Shown here: piece by piece, positions 2,531 through 25,046 of the stretch
Layout: every line of letters begins with the position of its first letter
How positions within the stretch are numbered: the stretch's first letter is position 1
NCBI GenBank assembly: GCA_003220495.1
Contig: QHSP01000016.1
Coordinates: forward strand, 87,831 to 151,830
Origin: Candidatus Rokuibacteriota bacterium
GTDB lineage: Bacteria; Methylomirabilota; Methylomirabilia; Rokubacteriales; CSP1-6
Length of the DNA stretch: 64,000 nt
Reading direction: 5' to 3'
Program-made: the position numbers and the translations under genes
Notes under the pieces: model-generated
The model's input: the letters and a program-made list of their open reading frames with translations, nothing else
What the model was told of the DNA's origin: nothing
Database searches by the model: none

Positions 2531-3736
2531 TCAGGCCTTCAGGCGGTCGGCGCGCACTTCCTTCGGCAGGCCGAGCACGCGCTCTCCGATGATGTTCTTC
2601 TGGATCTCGGACGAGCCCGAGTAGATCGTGCCCGCGCGCGACCAGAGGAACGCGGTCGCGAAGGTGCCGGGCTCGCCGGAGGAGGTATCGACCTCCTCGA
2701 ACTCCTCGCGCGCGACCATGAGCTGGCCGAACGGGCCGAGGATCTCGAGCGCGAGCTCGTAGTAGCGCTTCTCGAACTCGGTATACGAAAGCTTCGTGAT
2801 CGACGAGGCGGCGCCCGGCGCATCGCCCTTTTGCAGGGCCGAGAGCACGCGCAGCGCGGCGTAGCGCTGCACCTCGAGATCGGCGTAGATGCGCCCCATC
2901 CGCGCGCGCACCGCCGGGTCCTCGATCAGCGGCCGGCCGCCGCGCTTGAGCTCCTTCGTGGCCTTCACCAGCTGGTTGAACGCGGTGACATACCGCGTGA
3001 CGCGCCCGAGCGCGTTCCCACCGCGCTCGAAGCCGAGCGTGGTCTGCGCGATCGCCCAGCCCTCGTTGATGTTGCCGATCAGGTCCGACTTCTCGGCGCG
3101 CGCGTTCGTCATGAAGACCTCGGAGAAGAGCGAGCTGCCCGTGATCTGCTTGAGCGGCCGCACCTCGACGCCGGGCTGGCGCATGTTGAGGAGCACGCAC
3201 GAGATACCGCGGTGCTTGGCCACCTTCGGATCGGTGCGAGCGAGTAGGATGCCCCAGTCGGCGATCGGGCCGCTCGAGGTCCAGATCTTCTGGCCGTTGA
3301 CGACGAAGTGCTCGCCCTGGTCCTCGGCCCGCGTCTTGAGACTCGCGAGGTCCGATCCGGCGTTCGGCTCGGAGTAGAGCTGGCACCAGATCTCCTCGGC
3401 GGTCAGCATCTTCTTCAGATAGCGCTGCTTCTGCGCCTCGGTGCCGTGGACGATGATCGTCGGGCCGATGAACCCGATGCCGAGACCGTTGATGGCCGGC
3501 GGTGCGCTCACGCGCGCCATCTCGTCCTGCACGATCGCCTGCTGCATCGGCGTGGCGCCCCAGCCCCCGTACTCATTGGGCCACAGCATCCCGACGTAGC
3601 CCGCTTCGTAGAGCTTCCGATGCCACGCCTTGCGCTCGTCGAGCGTCTTGAGATCCTGCTTGGGAACATTGGCCTCGAGCCAGCGGCGCGTCGAGGCGCG
3701 GAATTCGCGGTCTTCAGGCGAGTAGTTCAGGTCCAT
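2531..3736 (-). CDS. Acyl-CoA dehydrogenase
   Basis: Acyl-CoA dehydrogenase family (MDLNYSPEDREF...YGGWGATPMQQAIVQDEM...IWTSS). The listed ORF start at 3841 is an in-frame extension; the start was placed at ATG 3734-3736 (complement), which has GGAGG 8 nt upstream. Confidence 0.88.
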   Translation of the reverse strand: MDLNYSPEDREFRASTRRWLEANVPKQDLKTLDERKAWHRKLYEAGYVGMLWPNEYGGWGATPMQQAIVQDEMARVSAPPAINGLGIGFIGPTIIVHGTEAQKQRYLKKMLTAEEIWCQLYSEPNAGSDLASLKTRAEDQGEHFVVNGQKIWTSSGPIADWGILLARTDPKVAKHRGISCVLLNMRQPGVEVRPLKQITGSSLFSEVFMTNARAEKSDLIGNINEGWAIAQTTLGFERGGNALGRVTRYVTAFNQLVKATKELKRGGRPLIEDPAVRARMGRIYADLEVQRYAALRVLSALQKGDAPGAASSITKLSYTEFEKRYYELALEILGPFGQLMVAREEFEEVDTSSGEPGTFATAFLWSRAGTIYSGSSEIQKNIIGERVLGLPKEVRADRLKA

Positions 3737-3752
3737 CGGGTCGGCCTCCGCA

Positions 3753-3804
3753 GTGCGCGCCGCAGGCCGTCGCGGGGCTGGGGCCCCGCCGGCCGAGGCG
3801 CGGC
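3753..3804. repeat. GC-rich palindromic intergenic repeat, copy A (REP-like)
   Basis: gtgcgcgccgcaggccgtcgcggggctggggccccgccggccgaggcgcgg. Near-identical copies at 15357, 31772 (reverse complement) and 48155. Imperfect 40-bp palindrome centred on GGGGCCCC. Confidence 0.5.
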
Positions 3805-3844
3805 TATGACGAATGCACGTTTCTAGCACGCCGGCCAGCACGAA

Positions 3845-4696
3845 TCAACGCGCGGGGGCCGGCAGCCGGTAGATCGCGGTGTGGAGCACGTGGGCGATCG
3901 GGCGGCGCTCGCCGGCGACCAGGACCAGGTCCGCCTCCACGAACTCGCGGCCCTTCTTCTCGAAGAGCGAGCGCACCTTGCCGCGGGTCGACAACGTCTC
4001 GCCGACCTTCGCGCCGCCGAGGTGGCGCACGACGCTTCCGGCGTGGATCCACGGGCTCATGCGGACGTTCTGCGAGAGCGCCTTGTTGGCCTGGTCGAGG
4101 AAGAACCCGGGATGGACCCAGCCGCGCGCGCCGCGATAGATCGAGAGACCGTCGCTGACGCGCTCGAGATATTCGGCGGCGCGCTCGTCGTCGTACGGAT
4201 TGATGGGCGTGCCGAGCGCGCTGAGGCCGGCGAGGTGGTCGCGCGTCGCGAGCGGGCGGTCGGCCGGTAGCGGCGCCGCCGGGTACCGGGCCAGGTTCAC
4301 CGGGACCGGCGAGCCGGCCGGCAGGGTGGCGATCAACGTCGCGCACTCGCCGCCGACGGCGGTCGTTGCCGTGACCGTCGCGGTGAGACCCTTGCGGTCG
4401 CGCGAGGTCACCACACCGGCCAGCCGAACCTCTTCGCCGTCGTGGATGGGCTTGCGGAATCGGGCGTTCGCGGTCCCGCGCTCGAGCCAGGCGGCGCCGA
4501 ACGCCTCGACCAGCGGATGGGTCAGGTACGCGTAGACGGTCACGCCGGGCACGAGCGCGCCGCGAAAGCCGTACTGACGCGCGATCTGCTCGTCGTGGAT
4601 CTTGTTCTCGGAGCTCGAGGACGTGTTGCGAGCCTTGACGTGATACTCGGGCAGGCGCTCCTGGCTATCCGTATCGGCCTCCTTCGTCGACGGCAC
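3845..4696 (-). CDS. MaoC-like (R)-specific enoyl-CoA hydratase/dehydratase, double hotdog fold
   Basis: 283-aa ORF containing a MaoC/hotdog dehydratase region (GALVPGVTVYAYLTHPLVEAFG...). GTG start. The N-terminal ~40 aa are low complexity, so the true start may lie further in. Confidence 0.78.
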   Translation of the reverse strand: MPSTKEADTDSQERLPEYHVKARNTSSSSENKIHDEQIARQYGFRGALVPGVTVYAYLTHPLVEAFGAAWLERGTANARFRKPIHDGEEVRLAGVVTSRDRKGLTATVTATTAVGGECATLIATLPAGSPVPVNLARYPAAPLPADRPLATRDHLAGLSALGTPINPYDDERAAEYLERVSDGLSIYRGARGWVHPGFFLDQANKALSQNVRMSPWIHAGSVVRHLGGAKVGETLSTRGKVRSLFEKKGREFVEADLVLVAGERRPIAHVLHTAIYRLPAPAR

Positions 4697-4720
4697 GGCC
4701 GCCGCCCCAGGTCCGGCAAG

Positions 4721-4728
4721 TATATAAT
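4721..4728 (+). promoter_or_regulatory. Candidate -10 element (TATATAAT) for lemA
   Basis: A perfect TATAAT at 4723-4728 in an otherwise GC-rich spacer, about 10 nt upstream of the lemA ATG. No good -35. It implies a very short leader. Confidence 0.3.
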
Positions 4729-4738
4729 CAACGCGGTC

Positions 4739-5335
4739 ATGTCGCGCGGGCTCCTCATCCCCTTGGTCGTAATCGCCCTACTGGTCATCGGCGTCGGCGC
4801 GTGGGCAGTCTCGATCAACAACCAGCTGGTCGTCCTCGACCAGAACGTCGGCGAGAAGTGGGCGCAGGTGCAGAACGTCTATCAGCGCCGCGCCGACCTC
4901 ATTCCGAATCTCGTCGAGACGGTGAAGGGCTTTGCGGCGCAGGAGCGCACGGTGCTGGAGGAGGTCACGCGCGCGCGGGCGAGCGCCTCCTCGATCCAGC
5001 TCACGCCCGAGGCGCTCAACGACCCCAAGGCGCTCGAGCGGTTCCAGGCCGCGCAGAACCAGCTCTCGGGCGCGCTCTCGCGGCTGCTGGTCACGGTCGA
5101 ACGCTACCCCGAGCTCAAGTCGAACCAGAACTTCCTGGCGCTGCAGAGCCAGCTCGAAGGCACCGAGAACCGGATCACCGTCGAGCGCCGTAACTTCAAT
5201 CAGGCGGTCCGCGACTACAACACGCGCCTGCGGCTCTTCCCGGGCTCGGCGGTCGCGCGCTTCTCGGGCTATCAACCCAAGGCGTTCTTCGAGGCGGCGC
5301 CCGACGCGGCGACCGTCCCCAAGGTGAAGTTCTAG
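4739..5335 (+). CDS. lemA: LemA family protein
   Basis: MSRGLLIPLVVIALLVIGVGAWAVSINNQLVVLDQNVGEKWAQVQNVYQRRADLIPNLV... Single N-terminal transmembrane helix followed by a LemA domain. ATG at 4739. Confidence 0.88.
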   Translation: MSRGLLIPLVVIALLVIGVGAWAVSINNQLVVLDQNVGEKWAQVQNVYQRRADLIPNLVETVKGFAAQERTVLEEVTRARASASSIQLTPEALNDPKALERFQAAQNQLSGALSRLLVTVERYPELKSNQNFLALQSQLEGTENRITVERRNFNQAVRDYNTRLRLFPGSAVARFSGYQPKAFFEAAPDAATVPKVKF

Positions 5336-5336
5336 T

Positions 5337-6089
5337 CTGCTTCTCGCCGCTGTCCTCGCCGTCGCCCTCGTCCTGCCGCCAGCGCCGACCGCCCGGCTGA
5401 ACGACTACGCCGGTCTTCTGACGCCGGCCGAGCGCGAGCGGATCGAGGCCCTCCTGACCGAGCGCGAGCGGACCACCGGAACCCAGATGGCGATCGCCGT
5501 GTTCAAGTCGCTCGACGGCGAGAGCCTGGAGGACGTCGCGAACCGGCTCTTCCAGCAATGGCGTCTCGGCCAGAAGAAGCTCGACAACGGCGTGCTACTC
5601 GTCGTGTTCGTCGAGGATCGAAAGCTTCGCCTCGAGGTCGGGTACGGGCTCGAAGGGGTGCTGCCCGACGCCGAGGCCGCGCAGATCATCCGCGGCGCGA
5701 TCGCGCCGCGCTTTCGAGAGCAGCGTTACGCGGCGGGGCTCGAGGCCGCCACGATCGCCGCCTACGAGCGCATCAAGCCGGGCTCGACGCCGCCCGAGGA
5801 GCTGAAGCGGTGGGCGCCGCAACGGCGGCGGGACAACACGAGCCCGAATCTCTACCTGCTCATTCTTCTCGCGTTCGTCGCGCTGACCGTCGGCGGGCTG
5901 GCGTGGGAAGCCTCGCACCAGCGCGGCTACACCGCGGGTCGGCGAGGCTGGACATCGTCGGGGGGCGGCTGGTATGGCGGAGGACGGGGCGGCGGCGGCT
6001 ACTCGGGCGGCGGCGGCTTTTCCGATGGTGGTGGCTTCTCGGGTGGCGGGGGGAGCTCCGGTGGCGGCGGTGCGAGCGGGAGCTGGTAA
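5337..6089 (+). CDS. TPM domain-containing protein (YgcG-like) with a transmembrane helix and a Gly-rich C-terminal tail; start codon uncertain
   Basis: A TPM-domain N-terminus (LNDYAGLLTPAERERIEALLTERERTTGTQMAIAVFKSLDGESLEDVA) is encoded upstream of the first ATG (5487). The frame opens at 5328 after a TGA, with no ATG, GTG or TTG before 5487. CTG at 5337 is the only plausible initiator. The C-terminus carries a transmembrane helix and a GGGWYGGGRGGGGYSGGGG tail. Confidence 0.7.
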   Translation: MLLAAVLAVALVLPPAPTARLNDYAGLLTPAERERIEALLTERERTTGTQMAIAVFKSLDGESLEDVANRLFQQWRLGQKKLDNGVLLVVFVEDRKLRLEVGYGLEGVLPDAEAAQIIRGAIAPRFREQRYAAGLEAATIAAYERIKPGSTPPEELKRWAPQRRRDNTSPNLYLLILLAFVALTVGGLAWEASHQRGYTAGRRGWTSSGGGWYGGGRGGGGYSGGGGFSDGGGFSGGGGSSGGGGASGSW

Positions 6090-6562
6090 TGGCGAAGCAT
6101 CCGAGCTGGACCCGGCAGTTTCTGAGCGAGGCGGACTTCGACGCGATCACGCGCGCGATCAAGACCGCCGAGTCGCGGACCTCCGCGGAGATCCGGGTGC
6201 ATCTCGAGCGCCGCGTGCCGCGGCGGCTCATGCTCGGCCGCGCGCCGGACGTCATGACGCGAGCCCGCCACGTGTTCCGGCGCCTCGGCATGCACCGGAC
6301 CGCCGAGCGCCACGGCGTGCTGGTCTACCTCGCCGTCGAGGACCGGCGTCTGGCGGTCGTCGGCGACGAGGGCATCCACGGGCGCGTCGGGGATCCGCAC
6401 TGGCACCGCGTGCGCGACCTGATGCTGGAGCGGCTGCGGTCGAACGCCCCGCGCGAGGCGATCGAGCGCGCGGTCGAAGAGCTCGGTCGTGCGCTCGCCG
6501 AGCACTATCCGCGCCGGCCCGACGATCTGAACGAGCTGAGCGACGAGGTCAGCGTGTCGTGA
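6089..6562 (+). CDS. TPM domain-containing protein
   Basis: MAKHPSWTRQFLSEADFDAITRAIKTAESRTSAEIRVHLE... The ATG overlaps the upstream TAA (TAATG). The gene order lemA, TPM, TPM is the typical arrangement. Confidence 0.78.
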   Translation: MAKHPSWTRQFLSEADFDAITRAIKTAESRTSAEIRVHLERRVPRRLMLGRAPDVMTRARHVFRRLGMHRTAERHGVLVYLAVEDRRLAVVGDEGIHGRVGDPHWHRVRDLMLERLRSNAPREAIERAVEELGRALAEHYPRRPDDLNELSDEVSVS

Positions 6563-6563
6563 G

Positions 6564-6908
6564 ATGCGGCGTCGGGTGTACTGTACGGGCATGGTCGCGC
6601 GCGTCGCGATGGTTGGACTCCTCTCGACAACGCTGGTCCTGTCGGCGGCGAGCGCTCAGGAAGCTCGGTCCGGCGAGGCCCCGGCGCCTCTCGAGCTCAA
6701 GCGCGAGGCGAAGCCGGCGCGGCCGATCGCGCGCCCCGAGAGCGACCGCGGCCAGGCGAGCCGTGACGCTGCGCGCGCCGCGGCCGAGTACGAGCAGCGG
6801 CAGCGAGACGACCAGCTGGTGCGCGAGCAGACGCGCCCGGCGCTCCGGCGCCCGGATCTCGGCTACGAGGTGACCGGGGGTATCCAGCAGCGCAACCTGC
6901 GCCGATGA
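6564..6908 (+). CDS. Hypothetical secreted protein (signal peptide, charged low-complexity)
   Basis: MRRRVYCTGMVARVAMVGLLSTTLVLSAASA... The N-terminus is signal-peptide-like. The ATG lies 2 nt after the TPM stop, and the stop overlaps the next gene (ATGA). Confidence 0.5.
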   Translation: MRRRVYCTGMVARVAMVGLLSTTLVLSAASAQEARSGEAPAPLELKREAKPARPIARPESDRGQASRDAARAAAEYEQRQRDDQLVREQTRPALRRPDLGYEVTGGIQQRNLRR

Positions 6909-8005
6909 CCCGCGACGACATTCCAACGCCTGCGCTGCTGCTCGACCTCGACCGCTTCGAGCGTAACCTCCGCCGGATGGCGGCGCACGCGCGCGCCACC
7001 GGCAAGAACCTCCGGCCTCACGCGAAGACGCATCGCTGCCCCGAGATCGCCCGCCGCCAGGTGAGCGCGGGCGCGCTCGGCGTGGCCTGCGCGAAGCTCG
7101 GCGAGGCGGAGGTGATGGCGCGGGCCGGCGTGCGTGGTCTTCTCATCACGACCGAAGTCGTCGCCCACGCCGCGATCCGGCGGCTCATGCGGCTCGTCTC
7201 GGCGGCGCCGGACACGCTCGTCGTGATCGACAATCCCGCCAACGTGGCCGATCTCGGCCGCGAGGCGTCCGCCGACGGCGTGACGGTCAACGTGCTGGTC
7301 GACGTCGACGTGGGCACCCGGCGCACCGGCATCGCCCCCGGCGAGCCGGCGCTGGCGCTGGCCCGCGCCGCGGTCGCGCAGCCGTCGCTCCGTTTTCGTG
7401 GGCTCCAGGGCTACGCGGGCCACTGCGCGCACGTCATGGGCTGGGAGGCGCGGCGCGAGGCCTCGCACGCGGCGTTGAAGCCGCTGATGGAGACGCGCGA
7501 GCTGATCGAGCGAGCCGGGCTGCCGGTCGAGATCGTCGCCGGCGGCTCGACCGGCACGTGGGACATCGACATCGAGCTGCCCGGGCTCACCGAGCTGCAG
7601 GCGGGCTCCTACTGCGTGATGGACATCGACTATCGGCGGATCGGCGCTCGGGCCGGCGCGGTGAACGGCGACTTCGAGATGGCGCTGACGGTGATCACCA
7701 CCGTGGTCAGCGTGCCGACGACCGAGCGCGCGATGGTCGACGGCGGGCTCAAGGCCTTCTCGACCGACAAGCCGTTTCCGCCCGAATCGGTGGAGCGCCC
7801 GGGTGTCGAGTTCAGCTTCGCGGGCGACGAGCACGGGCGATTGACCGTGACGGATCCGTCGCGCGCGCCGCGGCTCGGCGAGCGCATCGAGTTCTTCCCG
7901 CCCCACTGCGATCCGACGATCAACCTCTACGATCGGATCTACGCGATGCGCGGCGACAAGGTCGAGGCGGTCTGGGACATCGCTGCGCGCGGCCGGAGCG
8001 ATTAG
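6905..8005 (+). CDS. DSD1/alanine-racemase-N-domain family PLP enzyme (D-serine deaminase-like or D-threonine aldolase-like)
   Basis: 366 aa; ...NLRPHAKTHRCPEIARRQ... carries the PLP-lysine motif (PH.K.H.C) of the DSD1 family, plus the C-terminal beta-domain. Confidence 0.85.
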   Translation: MTRDDIPTPALLLDLDRFERNLRRMAAHARATGKNLRPHAKTHRCPEIARRQVSAGALGVACAKLGEAEVMARAGVRGLLITTEVVAHAAIRRLMRLVSAAPDTLVVIDNPANVADLGREASADGVTVNVLVDVDVGTRRTGIAPGEPALALARAAVAQPSLRFRGLQGYAGHCAHVMGWEARREASHAALKPLMETRELIERAGLPVEIVAGGSTGTWDIDIELPGLTELQAGSYCVMDIDYRRIGARAGAVNGDFEMALTVITTVVSVPTTERAMVDGGLKAFSTDKPFPPESVERPGVEFSFAGDEHGRLTVTDPSRAPRLGERIEFFPPHCDPTINLYDRIYAMRGDKVEAVWDIAARGRSD

Positions 8006-8038
8006 CTCCATATTCGGACTGCGCGCGGGCTGGTCGGC

Positions 8039-8488
8039 TCAGGCGGCCGGACGATACGCGATCAGGTAGCGGTGCTCGCCCTCGAGCACGACCTCGCCGC
8101 GCTGGTTCTTCAGCGCGACGCGCAGCGTGAGGAGCCCGGCCGACCGCTTGCGCTCCAGCGCGACCACCTCGTGCTCGGGAGAGATCGTGTCGCCGATGAG
8201 CGCCGGCCCGCGGAAGCGCGTGGTCTGCTCGACGAAGGCCACGATGGAGTCCTCGATCGACGGCGCGAGGGTCGAGGCGCCGACCGCGGTGAGCGACGCG
8301 AGGAGCAGACCGTGGGCGAGTCGTCCGCCGTAGCGCGTCTTCTTTCCGTACTCTTCGTCGTAGTGGATCGGGTGGTTATCGCCCGTCATGCCCGCGAAGA
8401 ACATGAAGTGCGCGTCGGTCAAGGTGCGCGACGGGCTCTTGAACCGATCGCCGACGGTGAAGTCCTCGAAGTAGCGCTGCGCCGTCAC
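8039..8488 (-). CDS. MaoC family dehydratase (single hotdog)
   Basis: VTAQRYFEDFTVGDRFKSPSRTLTDAHFMFFAGMTGDNHPIHYDEEY... GTG at 8488 overlaps the dus stop (GTGA). The 424-aa ORF listed in the track is an artefactual upstream extension. Confidence 0.8.
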   Translation of the reverse strand: MTAQRYFEDFTVGDRFKSPSRTLTDAHFMFFAGMTGDNHPIHYDEEYGKKTRYGGRLAHGLLLASLTAVGASTLAPSIEDSIVAFVEQTTRFRGPALIGDTISPEHEVVALERKRSAGLLTLRVALKNQRGEVVLEGEHRYLIAYRPAA

Positions 8489-20028: not shown

Positions 20029-20822
20029 TTCCCCTTGAACTCAGGCTTTCGCTTCTCGTTAAAGGCGCGGACACCCTCGAGGCGATCCTCGGTCACGACC
20101 GTCGCATTATAGGCCTCGATCGCGAGGATCATCGCGGTGTCGAGGTCCGTCTCGGCGCCATAGGCGATGGCTTTCTTCGCCTGACGGACGGCGATCGGGC
20201 CGTTCTTCGCGATCGTCGTCGCGATCTGGATCGCGGTGGGGCGCGCCTGACCGGGGCCAACCAGGTGATTGACGAGGCCCGCCGCCTTGGCCTCGTCCGC
20301 CTTCATCCGCCGCCCCGTGAAGATCAGCTCCTTCGCGAGCGGAGCGCCGACGATCCGCGGCAGGAGCTGCGTGCCGCCGATCCCCGGAAAGATGCCGAGC
20401 GTGGTCTCCGGCACGCCGAAGACCGCCGTTTCACTGGCGACGATGAAGTCCGACAGGATCGCGAGCTCACAGCCGCCCGCCAGCGCGAAGCCTTCCACCG
20501 CCGCGATCACCGGCACCGGGCACCGGAGCACGCGGAACGCCGCCTGCTCGAAGATGACGTGCTGAGCGCGCCACGCCTCGTCGGTCATGGCGTTGCGCTC
20601 CTTGAGGTCGCCCCCCGCGCAGAAGGCCTTGTCGCCGGCCCCGGTGAACACGACCACGCGGACATCCGGGTCGCGCTGGAATCCGTCGAAGCAGGCGAGC
20701 AGGTCCTCGCCCATCGCGGTGTTCATCGCGTTCATGTGCTCGGGCCGGTTCAGGGTCACCGTGACGACTCGCGCATCGTCCGAGCGCGTGACGAGAAGAT
20801 GGCGGTAGGTCGCGACGCTCAC
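20025..20822 (-). CDS. Enoyl-CoA hydratase/isomerase
   Basis: VSVATYRHLLVTRSDDARVVTVTLNRPEHMNAMN...FCAGGDLKE...GGCELAILSDF... is the crotonase fold. GTG at 20822 overlaps the CoA-transferase stop (GTGA). Confidence 0.85.
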   Translation of the reverse strand: MSVATYRHLLVTRSDDARVVTVTLNRPEHMNAMNTAMGEDLLACFDGFQRDPDVRVVVFTGAGDKAFCAGGDLKERNAMTDEAWRAQHVIFEQAAFRVLRCPVPVIAAVEGFALAGGCELAILSDFIVASETAVFGVPETTLGIFPGIGGTQLLPRIVGAPLAKELIFTGRRMKADEAKAAGLVNHLVGPGQARPTAIQIATTIAKNGPIAVRQAKKAIAYGAETDLDTAMILAIEAYNATVVTEDRLEGVRAFNEKRKPEFKGK

Positions 20823-22009
20823 TGGATGACGCCCTTGCCCTTGAGGCTCCGCACGTCGTCGAGCGTGTAACCGAGCCAGGTGAGGACGTCGCCGCTGTGC
20901 TCCCCGAGGAGTGGCGGCACACGGCGCACGGCCGGCCGGACGCCGTCCCAGGTGAGCGGCAGGGCGATGCTCCGGTAGTCGGGCAAGCGCGGGTGGGCGG
21001 CGCCGACGAGCACGCCACTCTCGCGGGTCTGCGGCTCCTGCAGCATCTGGTCCACGCTCAGGATCGGGGACGCGGGCACTCCGGCGATACGAAGCGTCTC
21101 GACGAGCTCGGCCGACTTGCGCTGCCGCGTCCGGGCGGAGAGCGCCTCGACGAGCGCAGCCTTGTTGGTCACACGGGAAGGATTGTCCTTGAACCGCGCG
21201 TCGTCGACCAGCTCGGGGCAGCCGAGCGCCGCCGTCAGCCTCGTGAAGAGCGCGTCCGACGCGGCGCCGATCATCGCGAAGCCGTCGGCCGTGGGAAAGG
21301 CCTGATAGGGCGCGATCATCGCGGTGCCCGAGCCCTGCGCCTGAGGCACGGCGCCCGACGCGAGGTATCCCATGGCGTGGTAGGACATCCACATCAAGGC
21401 CGTTTCGAAGAGCGCCGTCGTGACTTCGATGGCGCGTCCCGTCGCGTCACGCTGACGGAGCGCGGCGACGATACCCAGCGCCGCCCACATGCCGGTGCCC
21501 ATGTCGACGATCGACGTGCCGACGCGCGCCGGCTCCTGATCGGGATGGCCGTTGACCGACATCAAACCGCTGTACGCCTGCATCAACGGATCGTATCCGG
21601 GCAGATGGCTGAGCGGTCCCCGCGCTCCGAACGCGGTGATCGAGCAGTACACGATCCTCGGGTTGATCCGCGAGGCGCCCGCGAAGTCGAGTCCGAGCTC
21701 GTCGATGGCTCCCGGCCTTAGGCTCTGCACGAACACGTCGGCCCGGCCGACCAGGCGGTGCAGGACCTCGAGCCCACCGGGCGACTTGAGGTCGAGGGCG
21801 AGGCTCTTCTTGTTGCGATTCAACGAGATGAAGGTGGCGCTCTCCCGGCCCCAATAGGGTGGCGCCCACGCCCTCGCGTCGTCGCCGCGCCCGGGCCGCT
21901 CGATCTTGACGACCTCGGCTCCCATGTCTCCCAGGGTCTGAGTGCAGAACGGCCCAGCGACGTTCTGGGTCAGATCGGCAACGACGATACCCTCCAAAGG
22001 ATGCGCCAC
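20819..22009 (-). CDS. CoA transferase family III (CaiB/BaiF)
   Basis: 396 aa; GIVVADLTQNVAGPFCTQTLGDMGAEVVKIERPGRGDDAR... GTG start at 22009. Confidence 0.88.
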   Translation of the reverse strand: MAHPLEGIVVADLTQNVAGPFCTQTLGDMGAEVVKIERPGRGDDARAWAPPYWGRESATFISLNRNKKSLALDLKSPGGLEVLHRLVGRADVFVQSLRPGAIDELGLDFAGASRINPRIVYCSITAFGARGPLSHLPGYDPLMQAYSGLMSVNGHPDQEPARVGTSIVDMGTGMWAALGIVAALRQRDATGRAIEVTTALFETALMWMSYHAMGYLASGAVPQAQGSGTAMIAPYQAFPTADGFAMIGAASDALFTRLTAALGCPELVDDARFKDNPSRVTNKAALVEALSARTRQRKSAELVETLRIAGVPASPILSVDQMLQEPQTRESGVLVGAAHPRLPDYRSIALPLTWDGVRPAVRRVPPLLGEHSGDVLTWLGYTLDDVRSLKGKGVIQ

Positions 22010-22081: not shown

Positions 22082-22113
22082 TTGACACGTCTGGGGGAGC
22101 GCCGCGATAGAAT
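22082..22113 (+). promoter_or_regulatory. Candidate sigma-70-like promoter for the 604-aa orphan gene
   Basis: A perfect TTGACA (22082-22087) and TAGAAT (22108-22113). The 20-nt spacer is sub-optimal. The ATG at 22126 has no obvious Shine-Dalgarno sequence. Confidence 0.25.
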
Positions 22114-22125
22114 CGAATTCACTCC

Positions 22126-23940
22126 ATGGCTCCGAACGCTGAAGACTTGGCCAAGCGCCTGGCAGCACTGAGCGAACGATTCACGACTCTCGCGGCAACG
22201 CTCGCTCAGGCCACTCAACAGGTCCAGGCCGGGACCGTCCCGTCCGAGACCGTCATCGACGAAATCACCAAGATACGCACAGACTTCGTCGAGGTCCGCC
22301 AACGCGTGCTGGAGGCGGCTCGCTCGCTCTCGATCACCGTGCCGGCAATCTCGGAAGTCGACAGTGTCCGGGCGCTCGAGCCAATGCTCGAGACCGTCAT
22401 GCAGGCCGTGGCGAACCAGGAGAAGAGGGCGGCCCTGGCGGAAGCGCGCACCCGGGTCATGGCGCTGCTGGACCGGATACTGACGGTCACACACTCCGAC
22501 GGTCCGAACTTCGCCGCGCTGGTCCAGTGTCTGATCAAGGCCAGGGATATACGGCAGGCAGCCCAGGATCCCAAGGCGTTTGATTCTGAGGACGCCCCGG
22601 CCTTTCTCAACAGCATTCCGGCGTTTGCCGCCTTGCTCTCGATCATCGAGGGGCGCGACGCCCTCGACGACGACAAGTTCGCTGTCCTGGACGAGCAGGT
22701 GACCCAAGCCTTCGGAAGGACCCTGGCCGTCGCGGCGGCTCGCGGCAAGCTCACCGTCGGCGCAGGCTCCGCGCCGGTGGTGGACCGGACGGCCCCGCCC
22801 GCACCGAAGGAGCCGGTAGCTCGGACCGCGGCGGCTGCGGCGGCGCGCGCTCCGGCGCCGGTGCTCACGCCCAACCCGGCTCCCGTCGCGCCGGCGGCTC
22901 CCTCGCGAAACATCATCATCACGGAGCCGCGCGAGCCCGTCCAGCCCCGCGAGCCTGCCCAGCCGCGTGAGCCCGTTCTGGTGCCCGAGACCGCCCCGCC
23001 ACGCGAAGCCGCGCCGCCACGCGAAGCCGCCCAGCCACGCGAAGCCGCCCAGCCGGCCGACCAGGGAACTCAAGACGAGGCGGCGCAGTGGTGGGTTTCG
23101 GCGTGGGCGCGCTGGACGCAGTGGAAGGGCACGCTCGCCTTCAACGACGCCGTGAAGGAAGAGCTCGGCAAGTACAACTACGTCCTCAGCGTGCCGATCC
23201 AGCGGAGCACGGACTACGAGGAAGGCCTTCTCTCGTACGGCTACTCGATCCTCCTCGATCACATCGAGCACCGGTTCTCCGGCTTCGTCAACAAGGCGCT
23301 GAACAGCCTCAAGACGTTCCAGCCGGGCGCCGCGGGCGCGCAGAAGTCGGTCGGCGCCCACCTCTACAACGTCCTCGTGAGCGAGGGGCGGCTGCAGGAG
23401 ATCTATCCCGAGTTCGTCAAGAGCGTGCTCCTCGCTGCCGTGCCCGAGCCCGGGCTCTGGACCCACGCGCGGATTCTGGAGTCGACCACCGAGACGCGGA
23501 TCTTCACGCATCCGAGCAATCGCATCGGCGATCCCGAGCACAATTCGCAGCGGCTCACCCAGGAGCGGCAGCGGTTCGCCGACCATCGCTTCCCGGTTGT
23601 CGTGGCGCCGATCACCGCTCGCTTCTTCGCGATCGCCGCCGACTTGCGTGAGCCGCGGTCCATCGACGTGAAGCTCGTGGACGGGCGCAGCGACTCCGAT
23701 CACGCATGGCTCTTGACGATGCCGCCCGTCGGACGAGCCGACCTGAAGTCCGAGGTGCTGCGGCTCTTCCCGGAGGGAACCTCGGTGCCGGGGCTGGGAC
23801 GGGACTACGCGACCTTGTGGGTGGCGGTGTTCAACCCGGATCCGAGCGTGGAGAAGAAGTACGAGCTGACCTTGAGCCTCAAGCAGTCGGCCGCGACCAA
23901 GCAATCAGCCGGGACCTTCCGCTCGGCGCGGAGCGCCTGA
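22126..23940 (+). CDS. Large hypothetical protein (604 aa): helical N-terminal region, Ala/Pro-rich linker with PREP(V/A)Q tandem repeats, C-terminal Trp-rich domain of about 300 aa; no recognisable family
   Basis: Long ORF. The antisense frame is an obvious high-GC artefact (R/G-rich). The protein has a balanced composition outside the linker. I found no similarity to any family I know. Confidence 0.75.
   Translation: MAPNAEDLAKRLAALSERFTTLAATLAQATQQVQAGTVPSETVIDEITKIRTDFVEVRQRVLEAARSLSITVPAISEVDSVRALEPMLETVMQAVANQEKRAALAEARTRVMALLDRILTVTHSDGPNFAALVQCLIKARDIRQAAQDPKAFDSEDAPAFLNSIPAFAALLSIIEGRDALDDDKFAVLDEQVTQAFGRTLAVAAARGKLTVGAGSAPVVDRTAPPAPKEPVARTAAAAAARAPAPVLTPNPAPVAPAAPSRNIIITEPREPVQPREPAQPREPVLVPETAPPREAAPPREAAQPREAAQPADQGTQDEAAQWWVSAWARWTQWKGTLAFNDAVKEELGKYNYVLSVPIQRSTDYEEGLLSYGYSILLDHIEHRFSGFVNKALNSLKTFQPGAAGAQKSVGAHLYNVLVSEGRLQEIYPEFVKSVLLAAVPEPGLWTHARILESTTETRIFTHPSNRIGDPEHNSQRLTQERQRFADHRFPVVVAPITARFFAIAADLREPRSIDVKLVDGRSDSDHAWLLTMPPVGRADLKSEVLRLFPEGTSVPGLGRDYATLWVAVFNPDPSVEKKYELTLSLKQSAATKQSAGTFRSARSA
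22924..23060. repeat. 18-bp tandem repeats encoding PREPVQ/PREPAQ/PREAAP/PREAAQ
   Basis: ccacgcgaagccgcccag occurs twice in perfect tandem. It is preceded by ccacgcgaagccgcgccg and by diverged units ccccgcgagcctgcccag and ccgcgtgagcccgttctg. Confidence 0.7.
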
Positions 23941-23943
23941 GAT

Positions 23944-24357
23944 CTAGGACTTCGCGGGGTCGGCCGCCTTCGGCTGCTCTGCGACCTTCGCCGATTCGGG
24001 GGCCCTGGCGTGGTCGGGCGGGCGCGGGGGCTCCCCGGGCCCGGATCGTTCGAAGGGGCTGCGGCGCGGGGTGATACCGAGCTTCGCCGCGATCTGTCCC
24101 ATCGCCTGGGCGATCTCATCCTTCTCGAGCCGGAGCAGGTGATTCTCCCGCTTCAGGTCCTCGATGTCCTTGTGAAGCTTGTCCACTTCCTTCTGCGCTG
24201 CAGCGCCCGCGTGGTGGTCGCCCGCGATGAGCTCGGGCAAGAGACCGAAGATCTGCCGCGTCTCCTCGATCCACTTCGCGATTCGCTCTCGCGCTTCAGC
24301 AGCGGATGTAGGGTCCATGGCCATCCTCGTCTGCTCCGGGGCGCGGTCCGTCGCCAT
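23944..24357 (-). CDS. Hypothetical small coiled-coil protein
   Basis: 137 aa; ...AQKEVDKLHKDIEDLKRENHLLRLEKDEIAQAMGQIAAKL... has heptad-like spacing. It is convergent with the 604-aa gene, only 3 nt tail-to-tail. Coding status is not certain. Confidence 0.45.
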   Translation of the reverse strand: MATDRAPEQTRMAMDPTSAAEARERIAKWIEETRQIFGLLPELIAGDHHAGAAAQKEVDKLHKDIEDLKRENHLLRLEKDEIAQAMGQIAAKLGITPRRSPFERSGPGEPPRPPDHARAPESAKVAEQPKAADPAKS

Positions 24358-24473
24358 ATGTCATTGGCCGGAAGGCCGACGGCAGCCTGCTAGCCCGTGG
24401 AGTTGCTACATTCGTAGAATAGCAGCGTAGCATCCGCGTTCCGAAATTAGCAATCCGGCCCCGGGAAGATCGG

Positions 24474-25046
24474 TCAGGGCGTCGCGGGCGCGGCCAGGAC
24501 GGCCTCGATAAACTGGCGTCCTTTCGGACTATCCCACGGTCTCGGCCCCGCGGCCCGCCCGACCAGCCGACCCTGGCGGTCGACGATGTACACGGTCGGC
24601 GGACCCCAGACGCCGTACACCTTGCCGGTCACATCCCCGCTTTCGTCGAGCAGCACCGGTGCGATGTAGCGGCGCTCCTTGACGGCTTGCCGGACCTTGT
24701 CGGCATCTTCCCTGAAATCGATGAGGAGTACTTCGAGGCCCTTACCGCGAAAGTCCTGGTAGACCTTCTGGACGGGAGGCAACTCCTCCCGGCACGTGCT
24801 TCACCACGTGGCCCAGAAGAAAAGCATCACGACTTTACCGCGTAAGTCGGCGAGGCTGACCGTCTTGCCGCCCAGATCCGGCAGCGAGAAGTCCGGCGCC
24901 GCCTTCGGCGGCGTGTACGGCTGCATCTGCACGCTGGCGAAGTCCGGCGGAGCGACCGCCCCCGGTGTGAGCGTCGCCGAGGCGACCAGCGCCGCGGTCA
25001 GGACTACGACGGGCACGAGTGATCTCATAAGCGCAGGGTATCGCAT
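24474..25046 (-). CDS. Selenocysteine-containing TlpA/ResA-like thiol:disulfide oxidoreductase (thioredoxin fold, signal peptide); in-frame TGA at 24801-24803 (complement)
   Basis: ORFs 24801..25046 and 24474..24782 are in the same frame. Joined, they read ...[30 protein letters not shown]..., which matches the TlpA/ResA active site FWATWCxPC with Sec replacing the first Cys. The second ORF piece begins with TTG, not a real start. Confidence 0.7.
24773..24791 (-). other. SECIS-like hairpin 9 nt downstream of the UGA
   Basis: On the mRNA: UGA agcacgugc CGGGAGG-aguug-CCUCCCG. 7-bp GC stem with a GU-containing apical loop, at the distance expected for a bacterial SECIS. Confidence 0.45.

Follow-up and report, generated by a model that had tools for sequence, protein, structure and literature searches.

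A gene for a protein of 604 amino acids and a convergent gene for a small coiled-coil protein lie side by side in a 64 kb stretch of DNA with ~69% G+C from a Candidatus Rokuibacteriota bacterium (contig QHSP01000016.1; the whole analysed stretch is referred to as the window). Together they form a conserved two-gene module that is specific to the Rokuibacteriota/Methylomirabilota lineage. The large protein is cytoplasmic and non-catalytic, and its role is most likely that of a non-catalytic sensor or adaptor. The best explanation of the whole, to which we give an even chance of being correct, is a zinc-less, protease-derived sensor or adaptor with a coiled-coil partner. Judged by sequence, the C-terminal domain (C-domain) of the large protein is homologous to that part of a putative secreted zincin which follows the HExxH motif, namely a C-terminal helical sub-domain and a beta-sandwich. 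Its N-terminal domain (N-domain) is, by the company that it keeps in other proteins, presumably a promiscuous signalling-type module. Rokubacteria are abundant, uncultivated soil bacteria. The pair appears to be widespread among them (43 loci in species-representative genomes) and entirely unannotated.

A conserved gene pair in Rokubacteria

The coordinates of the two genes were taken from the open reading frame (ORF) list and the sequence of the window:
22126..23940, plus strand: gene of the large protein, 604 amino acids, stop included
23941..23943, no strand: gap of 3 nt between the convergent stop codons
23944..24318, minus strand: small coiled-coil gene in its probable true extent, 124 amino acids from MDPTS, stop included
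23944..24357, minus strand: small ORF as first called, 137 amino acids

The initial annotation had reported both ORFs with 3 nt between their stops, and this arrangement is correct. The large protein had been regarded as an orphan, which it is not. A search of 5.8 billion proteins returned at least 546 homologs among the 8000 candidates scored, and a profile built from 20 homologs matched 895 proteins at E<=1e-3 (144 of them at E<=1e-30) among 1.84 billion cluster representatives; both domains recur in many architectures. The best 120 homologs have 67-89% identity along the whole protein and include one from a named Candidatus Rokuibacteriota metagenome-assembled genome (MAG). When one genome per species was scanned, 43 loci of the large protein were found, nearly all labelled Rokuibacteriota, Methylomirabilota or Methylomirabilia, with a few labelled only "uncultured bacterium" and one labelled Binatia. 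Named two-domain members beyond the closest group are also from Methylomirabilota/Rokubacteria.

Several genomes code for two paralogs of the two-domain protein. In one locus (L027), the paralogs are arranged in tandem (3965..5671 and 6294..8345) and enclose an ORF for a strongly hydrophobic protein of 135 amino acids (5828..6235).

No curated family accounts for the pair. Scans of both proteins against Pfam (2025 copy), NCBIfam (release 20), PADLOC and PHROG gave nothing above threshold, and in PADLOC-DB no component model was matched by either of them at E<=1. The N-domain and the C-domain thus define two domain families, both of which are absent from Pfam and NCBIfam. Literature searches for Rokubacteria and for "MXAN_6640" found no paper on the large-protein family.

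The large protein evolves under purifying selection, with a ratio of non-synonymous to synonymous substitution rates (dN/dS) of 0.15-0.24 against seven orthologs. The ratio is 0.13-0.28 in the N-region, 0.20-0.56 in the linker and 0.07-0.14 in the C-region. The same division is seen in the alignment of close homologs, which consists of a conserved N-region (residues 1-212), a gapped linker (213-316) and a nearly invariant C-region (317-604).

For the small gene, the initial annotation was right in calling a coding gene, but its start at 24357 lies in a 5′ extension that is not conserved. Gene calls in relatives begin with M(A/V)MDPTS or MDPTS, which places the conserved start at 24318 (MDPTS) or 24324 (MAMDPTS). 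The sequence GAGGA (24328-24324) is found 5 nt before the ATG of MDPTS, and the upstream alignment has 24319-24357 behaving as a leader rather than being conserved as coding sequence. The product is likely to have 124-126 amino acids. The family alignment begins with a conserved helix, RxRVx(K/R)WIEE…LLPEL, continues with a coiled coil in which insertions of between 7 and about 45 residues make for different lengths, and ends with the conserved motif QIAxKLG[IV]T..SPFxR and a Pro-rich tail. A profile search gave at least 678 homologous clusters of 120-160 amino acids, which carry generic coiled-coil auto-annotations only; all organism names given are Methylomirabilota or Binatia. Named coiled-coil families (ZapB/FtsL/YabA/TSC22 etc.) reach 11-16 bits at best, against cut-offs of 24-134, and any similarity to them is of the generic coiled-coil type only.

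A homolog of the small ORF was detected by tblastn directly downstream of the large gene in 27 of the 43 species-level loci. These comprise all 12 orthologous loci, with 66-93% identity, and 15 paralogous loci (L017-L025, L028-L031, L033, L044), in which the large proteins are 39-52% and the small proteins 31-37% identical to those of the window. The 15 paralogous loci have none of the six genes that flank the pair in the window; the neighbours there are a Calx-beta/SBBP giant, an isochorismatase, an RRM protein and a major facilitator superfamily transporter. In one of them (L021), the small gene is co-directional and not convergent. The pair has thus been kept in two genomic settings that are independent of each other. 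This speaks for a functional link, and the two-gene module that had been proposed is borne out.

High-GC DNA yields many long spurious ORFs, and all neighbours are conserved among close orthologs, so that adjacency alone is weak proof. It was therefore considered that the small ORF might be a chance ORF on the opposite strand and the pair an artefact of synteny. We regard this as virtually excluded and have rejected it, because the small gene is conserved and under purifying selection (dN/dS 0.11-0.36 overall and 0.02-0.22 over residues 1-93). It also has a conserved Shine-Dalgarno sequence and start, conserved terminal motifs and insertions that vary the length of its coiled coil, it has the many homologous clusters described above, and in 15 loci it has remained next to the paralog although the flanking genes are unrelated. 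A confident match to a characterised family, or a small ORF lacking conservation or coding signal, had been named as refuting observations; neither was encountered.

One paralog group (12 loci, e.g. L034 5922..8660), which is without the small ORF, has two MlaC genes on its upstream side and is also next to a receiver-like ORF and a tandem pair of PilT/PilU-like T2SSE ATPases.

The C-domain as a putative metalloprotease remnant

The large protein had been described as a helical N-region, an Ala/Pro linker and a Trp-rich C-domain, and alignments and structure models agree with this layout. Its parts, all on the plus strand, are:
22126..22761: N-domain, amino acids 1-212, three long helices and a compact helical bundle
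22762..23073: Pro/Ala-rich variable linker, amino acids 213-316
22925..23055: 18-bp tandem array (Tandem Repeats Finder: period 18, 7.3 copies, 71% matches)
23074..23937: C-domain, amino acids 317-604, putative zincin-derived pseudo-peptidase module
23068..23439: helical sub-domain, amino acids 315-438 (DSSP: helices at model residues 6-129)
23089..23115: degenerate "glutamate helix" WWVSAWARW, amino acids 322-330, counterpart of WWYEATAEW
23467..23886: beta-sandwich sub-domain, amino acids 448-587 (DSSP: strands at model residues 139-278)

The origin of the C-domain became evident from its profile, which also matches proteins of 750-1480 amino acids that are devoid of the N-domain. These carry Sel1, TPR or F5/8-type-C modules, or Laminin_G_3 together with DUF642 and cohesin. 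Relatives bearing HExxH are matched at profile E-values of 1e-40 to 1e-69. In 14 representatives, the motif HE[MLV]FH (usually HEMFHAVQD) is found directly upstream of the aligned region, and 22-27 residues separate it, start to start, from WWYEATAEW. The arrangement HExxH…E is that of gluzincin metallopeptidases (MA clan). The Glu of WWxE is kept in 14 of 14 HExxH-bearing representatives. It is replaced by S, A, G, R, T or Q in 36 of the 37 scorable representatives without HExxH (one further such representative, which lacks the WW helix, was left out), and the window protein has Ser. The lone exception (P0197) has retained the Glu beside a decayed RELFH.

Most HExxH-bearing relatives start with a signal peptide or lipobox. 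The four that were tested match the NCBIfam model NF045524 (MXAN_6640 family putative metalloprotease) below threshold, at E 3e-5 to 1e-4; scores are 22-24 bits against a cut-off of 140, and the alignment is centred on the HExxH region. The large protein of the window does not match NF045524 at E<=1. Weak Pfam matches among 11 relatives, to SprT-like (6 of 11) and to Peptidase_M9, Tox-MPTase2 and DUF5700 (one each), likewise indicate a metalloprotease.

The C-domain can be aligned over about 270 residues with these NF045524-related, lipoprotein-type putative metalloproteases, with which it has the motifs WW..A.A.W, SVPIQ, YPDF and PLTxRFF in common. Unlike them, the window protein lacks the HE[ML]FH half, the ligand Glu, the signal peptide and the lipobox, and where they have lectin-like, Sel1 or TPR modules, it has the N-domain. 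There is no signal peptide and no HExxH anywhere in its 604 amino acids. The linker continues directly into DEAAQWWVSAWARW, with Ser for the ligand Glu, and the N-terminal beta-rich half of the relatives' catalytic domain is missing. As the HExxH segment is absent and the Glu replaced, all three zinc ligands are missing from the window protein. The claim that no domain could be recognised thus holds as far as curated families above threshold are concerned; it does not hold for homology, as the C-domain appears to descend from the post-HExxH part of a metalloprotease.

It is very improbable that the large protein is an unusual but active zinc metalloprotease. In favour of this are the homology between the C-domain and HExxH…E proteins and one HxxH-like string, HIEH, at residues 379-382. 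However, the HExxH-carrying segment is replaced by the linker, the beta-rich catalytic half is absent, and the third-ligand Glu has been lost here as in nearly all other HExxH-less members. With the zinc-ligand motifs lost, an active protease was rejected.

The AlphaFold2 model of the C-domain, computed from diverse alignments, is of high quality (pLDDT 92.8, pTM 0.89). A Foldseek search with this model gave no PDB match for the helical sub-domain. The beta-sandwich matched PliG (E 8e-5), GOLD, CUB, C-CPE and the ColG collagen-binding domain. The last ~140 residues thus resemble beta-sandwiches of the PPC/collagen-binding/PliG/GOLD/CUB kind (Foldseek E 8e-5 to 4e-3, target-normalised TM 0.5-0.66), but with 8-16% identity and no sequence-level family match, this is a resemblance at the level of the fold only. 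PDB sequence-profile searches with the C-domain alignment and with full HExxH relatives gave nothing meaningful.

If this history is correct, the family provides a clear case of a secreted zincin that has been trimmed to its post-catalytic half and re-used intracellularly as a non-enzyme.

The N-domain and its many partners

The N-domain was modelled by AlphaFold2 from diverse alignments as an all-helical structure (pLDDT 93.9, pTM 0.78) with long helices at residues 5-34, 41-67 and 81-118 and a compact bundle at residues 121-211. It has no match in Pfam beyond noise at E<=1, and fold searches against the PDB (best E 1.3) and against viral structures (BFVD, best E 0.57) gave no significant match.

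It does, however, recur on very different proteins. It is N-terminal on AAA_22/AAA_16 (STAND-type) NTPase proteins of 1800-1900 amino acids (e.g. P0236) and C-terminal to TPR_12/TPR_10 arrays (P0205, P0225, P0269, P0218). In P0229 and P0263, it comes after a complete sigma-70 factor (regions 1.2-4) and before an AAA_22 NTPase. It follows straight after the sigma-70 regions in P0258 (a partial MAG protein) and is found ahead of ChW repeats in P0252. In P0149, P0399 and an ORF of locus L036, a class-III nucleotidyl cyclase (Guanylate_cyc, E 1e-18 to 1e-20) is followed by the N-domain and then by the C-domain. It also exists in a stand-alone form of about 200-250 amino acids. The sigma-70 and ChW fusions are from filamentous cyanobacteria (Oscillatoriales, Microcoleus, Nostocales), while the three cyclase fusions are from Rokubacterial relatives. 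Of the N-domain, the ORF of L036 (3194..5251) has kept no more than the bundle; the coiled-coil half has been replaced by the cyclase.

The cyanobacterial proteins with sigma-70, N-domain and AAA_22/STAND-type NTPase (P0229, P0263, P0258/P0277, P0273) are giants of 1400-2450 amino acids whose sole annotation is "sigma-70 family RNA polymerase sigma factor". By their domain composition, they would be STAND-controlled sigma factors, which are unusual and apparently unstudied.

STAND-type multidomain regulators have an N-terminal output domain, as in the class-III cyclase-NTPase-TPR proteins. The N-domain fits into this scheme in that an output domain stands directly before it (Guanylate_cyc in P0149, P0399 and L036; sigma-70 in P0229, P0263 and P0258) and, in the cyanobacterial giants, an AAA_22 NTPase comes after it. 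In the Rokubacterial cyclase fusions, the pseudo-peptidase domain stands in place of the NTPase and repeat sensor of STAND regulators. The window protein differs from these regulators, as it has neither an output domain nor an NTPase.

A scan of metagenomes with the N-domain alignment gave three loci. In the non-Rokubacterial N-domain contexts (L049-L052), neither a recurrent partner nor a small-ORF homolog was found. In L054, a locus with a stand-alone N-domain gene, an rpoD-like sigma-70 gene (3418..4761) is only two genes away.

Effector-associated domains (EADs) have been described in STAND/TPR/vWA-MoxR conflict systems, where they are coupled to inactive peptidase effectors (Kaur, Burroughs, Iyer, Aravind 2020, PMC7159879). 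The gene pair might accordingly be a component of an anti-phage or programmed-death system, in which the N-domain would act like an EAD and bring an inactive peptidase, as effector or decoy, to a STAND/TPR core whose gene lies elsewhere in the genome. The N-domain resembles EADs in being non-enzymatic, helical and terminal, and in being common to NTPase/TPR core proteins and to proteins with variable domains (AAA_22/STAND, TPR_12, sigma-70, ChW, Guanylate_cyc and the C-domain, besides the stand-alone form). Moreover, a catalytically dead peptidase domain occupies the variable position of the window protein, and several paralogs occur per genome, including the tandem pair in L027.

We nevertheless consider such a role unlikely. 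At ~212 amino acids, the N-domain has twice the described EAD size, and neither a Pfam EAD model nor PADLOC, PHROG or a viral fold was matched. A cognate core is not seen: the 64 kb window has only one copy of the N-domain, and no N-domain-bearing NTPase or TPR gene was found in the window or in any Rokubacterial locus (L006-L048). Finally, the large gene does not behave as a patchy defence gene: in many species its orthologs are conserved, slowly evolving under strong purifying selection and syntenic among metabolic genes, which is atypical of defence islands.

A disordered linker of variable length

The linker is disordered and the number of its PRE repeats varies between relatives. An 18-bp repeat array had been noted here initially and is detected by Tandem Repeats Finder, but six units of the type PRE(P/A)xx are encoded (PREPVQ, PREPAQ, PREPVL, PREAAP, PREAAQ, PREAAQ) rather than the five that had been listed, PREPVL being the additional one. 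In 118 close homologs, the segment between the anchors RGKL and QWW has 54-147 amino acids with 0-7 PRE/PQE units, so the copy-number variation that had been suggested as a check does exist. The window protein has 111 amino acids in this segment, of which 28 are Ala and 25 are Pro.

The C-terminal tail SAATKQSAGT, whose length also differs among relatives, comes from a second, short 18-bp tandem repeat (23880..23916; 2.1 copies, 84% matches).

The rigid-looking PRE-repeat spacer of variable length, together with the long N-domain helices and a coiled-coil partner that is also variable in length, could belong to a scaffold of the envelope, of pili or of cell division. The coiled coils would then form a filament or hub, the Pro-rich linker would be a spacer and the C-domain would anchor a client. 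The paralog group next to a receiver-like ORF and two PilT/PilU-like ATPases is in line with this. However, the adjacency to PilT is restricted to that one orthologous group, which itself has no small ORF, no cytoskeletal or division family was found above threshold in Pfam and NCBIfam, and the fusions to cyclases, sigma-70 and STAND NTPases would be left unexplained. A scaffold thus seems improbable, to about the same degree as a conflict system.

Proposed role of the pair

As a protease-derived sensor or adaptor, the large protein would have a division of labour between its ends. The dead protease domain may have been re-used as a sensor module that binds peptides or proteins, and the N-domain may be a transmitting, oligomerising or adaptor module. 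How far apart the two ends can be would depend on the linker, and the small coiled-coil protein would be a binding partner or regulator of the large protein. A precedent exists in STAND/TPR systems, in which inactive peptidase domains have a binding function (Kaur et al. 2020, PMC7159879).

Several observations weigh against this explanation. No output domain and no NTPase are encoded in or beside the window gene, and the neighbouring genes are those of ordinary metabolism. In 16 of the 43 loci, no small-ORF homolog could be detected by tblastn; one of these (L032) is cut by the end of the contig and the others represent other paralogs. The convergent orientation rules out co-transcription, so that coupling of the two genes is deduced from their conserved adjacency only.

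A more far-reaching version is possible, but we put it forward only tentatively. The N-domain would be an undescribed module that couples outputs (sigma-70, class-III cyclase) to STAND NTPase, TPR or dead-protease sensors. The pair would then be an enzyme-free signalling device in which a zinc-less cytoplasmic protease remnant senses a ligand and signals via the coiled-coil partner, possibly towards transcription. Hints of transcription as a target come from the sigma-70 fusions and the stand-alone N-domain gene close to the rpoD-like gene in L054.

The large-protein family is well-defined and phylum-wide and has an instructive evolutionary history, while its role we only infer. Pseudo-peptidase binding modules, and adaptor domains common to STAND/TPR proteins, are already-known kinds of components, and nothing is overturned by the present example. 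Its use lies in annotation and in providing an example of a pseudo-enzyme. In addition, a helical domain without previous description that is tied to STAND NTPases, sigma-70 fusions and cyclases bears on the wiring of the giant regulators of cyanobacteria.

Expression signals

The following elements flank the two genes:
22082..22087, plus strand: putative -35-like hexamer TTGACA, spacer longer than canonical
22108..22113, plus strand: -10-like hexamer TAGAAT, 20 nt past TTGACA and 12 nt before the ATG
24319..24473, minus strand: conserved upstream region and leader of the small gene, 77% mean identity in the alignment

The candidate promoter element TTGACA at 22082 had been noticed initially, as had the lack of a Shine-Dalgarno sequence ahead of the large gene. 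Inspection of the upstream sequence agrees on both points, and the -10-like TAGAAT could be added. TTGACA or TTGGCA is present in eight of nine ortholog upstream regions, 19-20 nt before TAGAAT, and the hexamer has been deleted in L001/L006. TAGAATC is invariant in the window, in L001, L004 and L005 and in all orthologs, which have the layout TTGACA, N19-20, TAGAAT, N12, ATG in common. The paralogous group retains CTAGAATCG 22-27 nt upstream of the large-gene ATG. A simple consensus scan skipped this promoter because its spacer exceeds 18 nt. As the -10 box is very near the ATG, the leader of the large gene would be only ~5-6 nt long and devoid of a Shine-Dalgarno sequence.

The gap between the stop codons is 1-3 nt in relatives, and the paralogous group has either a gap of ~20 nt or an overlap of 4 nt. 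A gap of 3 nt leaves no room for a terminator, so the transcripts of the two genes may overlap. Upstream of the small gene, TTGC(T/G)AATTTC and GATGCTACGCTGCTATTCTAC are conserved in the alignment. The fold predicted for the small-gene leader is no better than that of shuffled sequences (z = -0.35), so that a structured RNA at this place was rejected, and an Rfam scan of the whole window gave no family. The conserved upstream region contains an inverted-repeat-like element, TGCTAC…GTAGCA / CTACGAATGTAG (24404..24432), which could be an operator.

Neighbouring genes

A family-III coenzyme A (CoA)-transferase gene adjoins an N-domain-bearing gene in three otherwise unrelated contexts:
20819..22009, minus strand: CoA-transferase gene of the window
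2018..3208 in L025: CoA-transferase gene of a paralog locus
2105..3298 in L054: CoA-transferase gene of the stand-alone N-domain locus

Such transferases are very numerous in these genomes and the adjacency may be due to chance.

On the other side of the pair, an AhpC/TSA (TlpA-like thioredoxin-fold) gene (24474..25046, minus strand) is read as two ORFs of 81 and 102 amino acids, also in the gene calls of relatives. The two are separated by an in-frame TGA (24802..24800), and read-through gives …FFWATW-TGA-STC…, which would place selenocysteine at the first Cys of the CxxC motif. The hairpin GGGAGG-AGUUG-CCUCCC (about 24788..24772), 12 nt downstream of the TGA, is a candidate bacterial selenocysteine insertion sequence (SECIS). 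TGA and hairpin are conserved in 12 distinct orthologous sequences. From this pattern, the gene probably codes for a selenoprotein and has been mis-called as a split gene.

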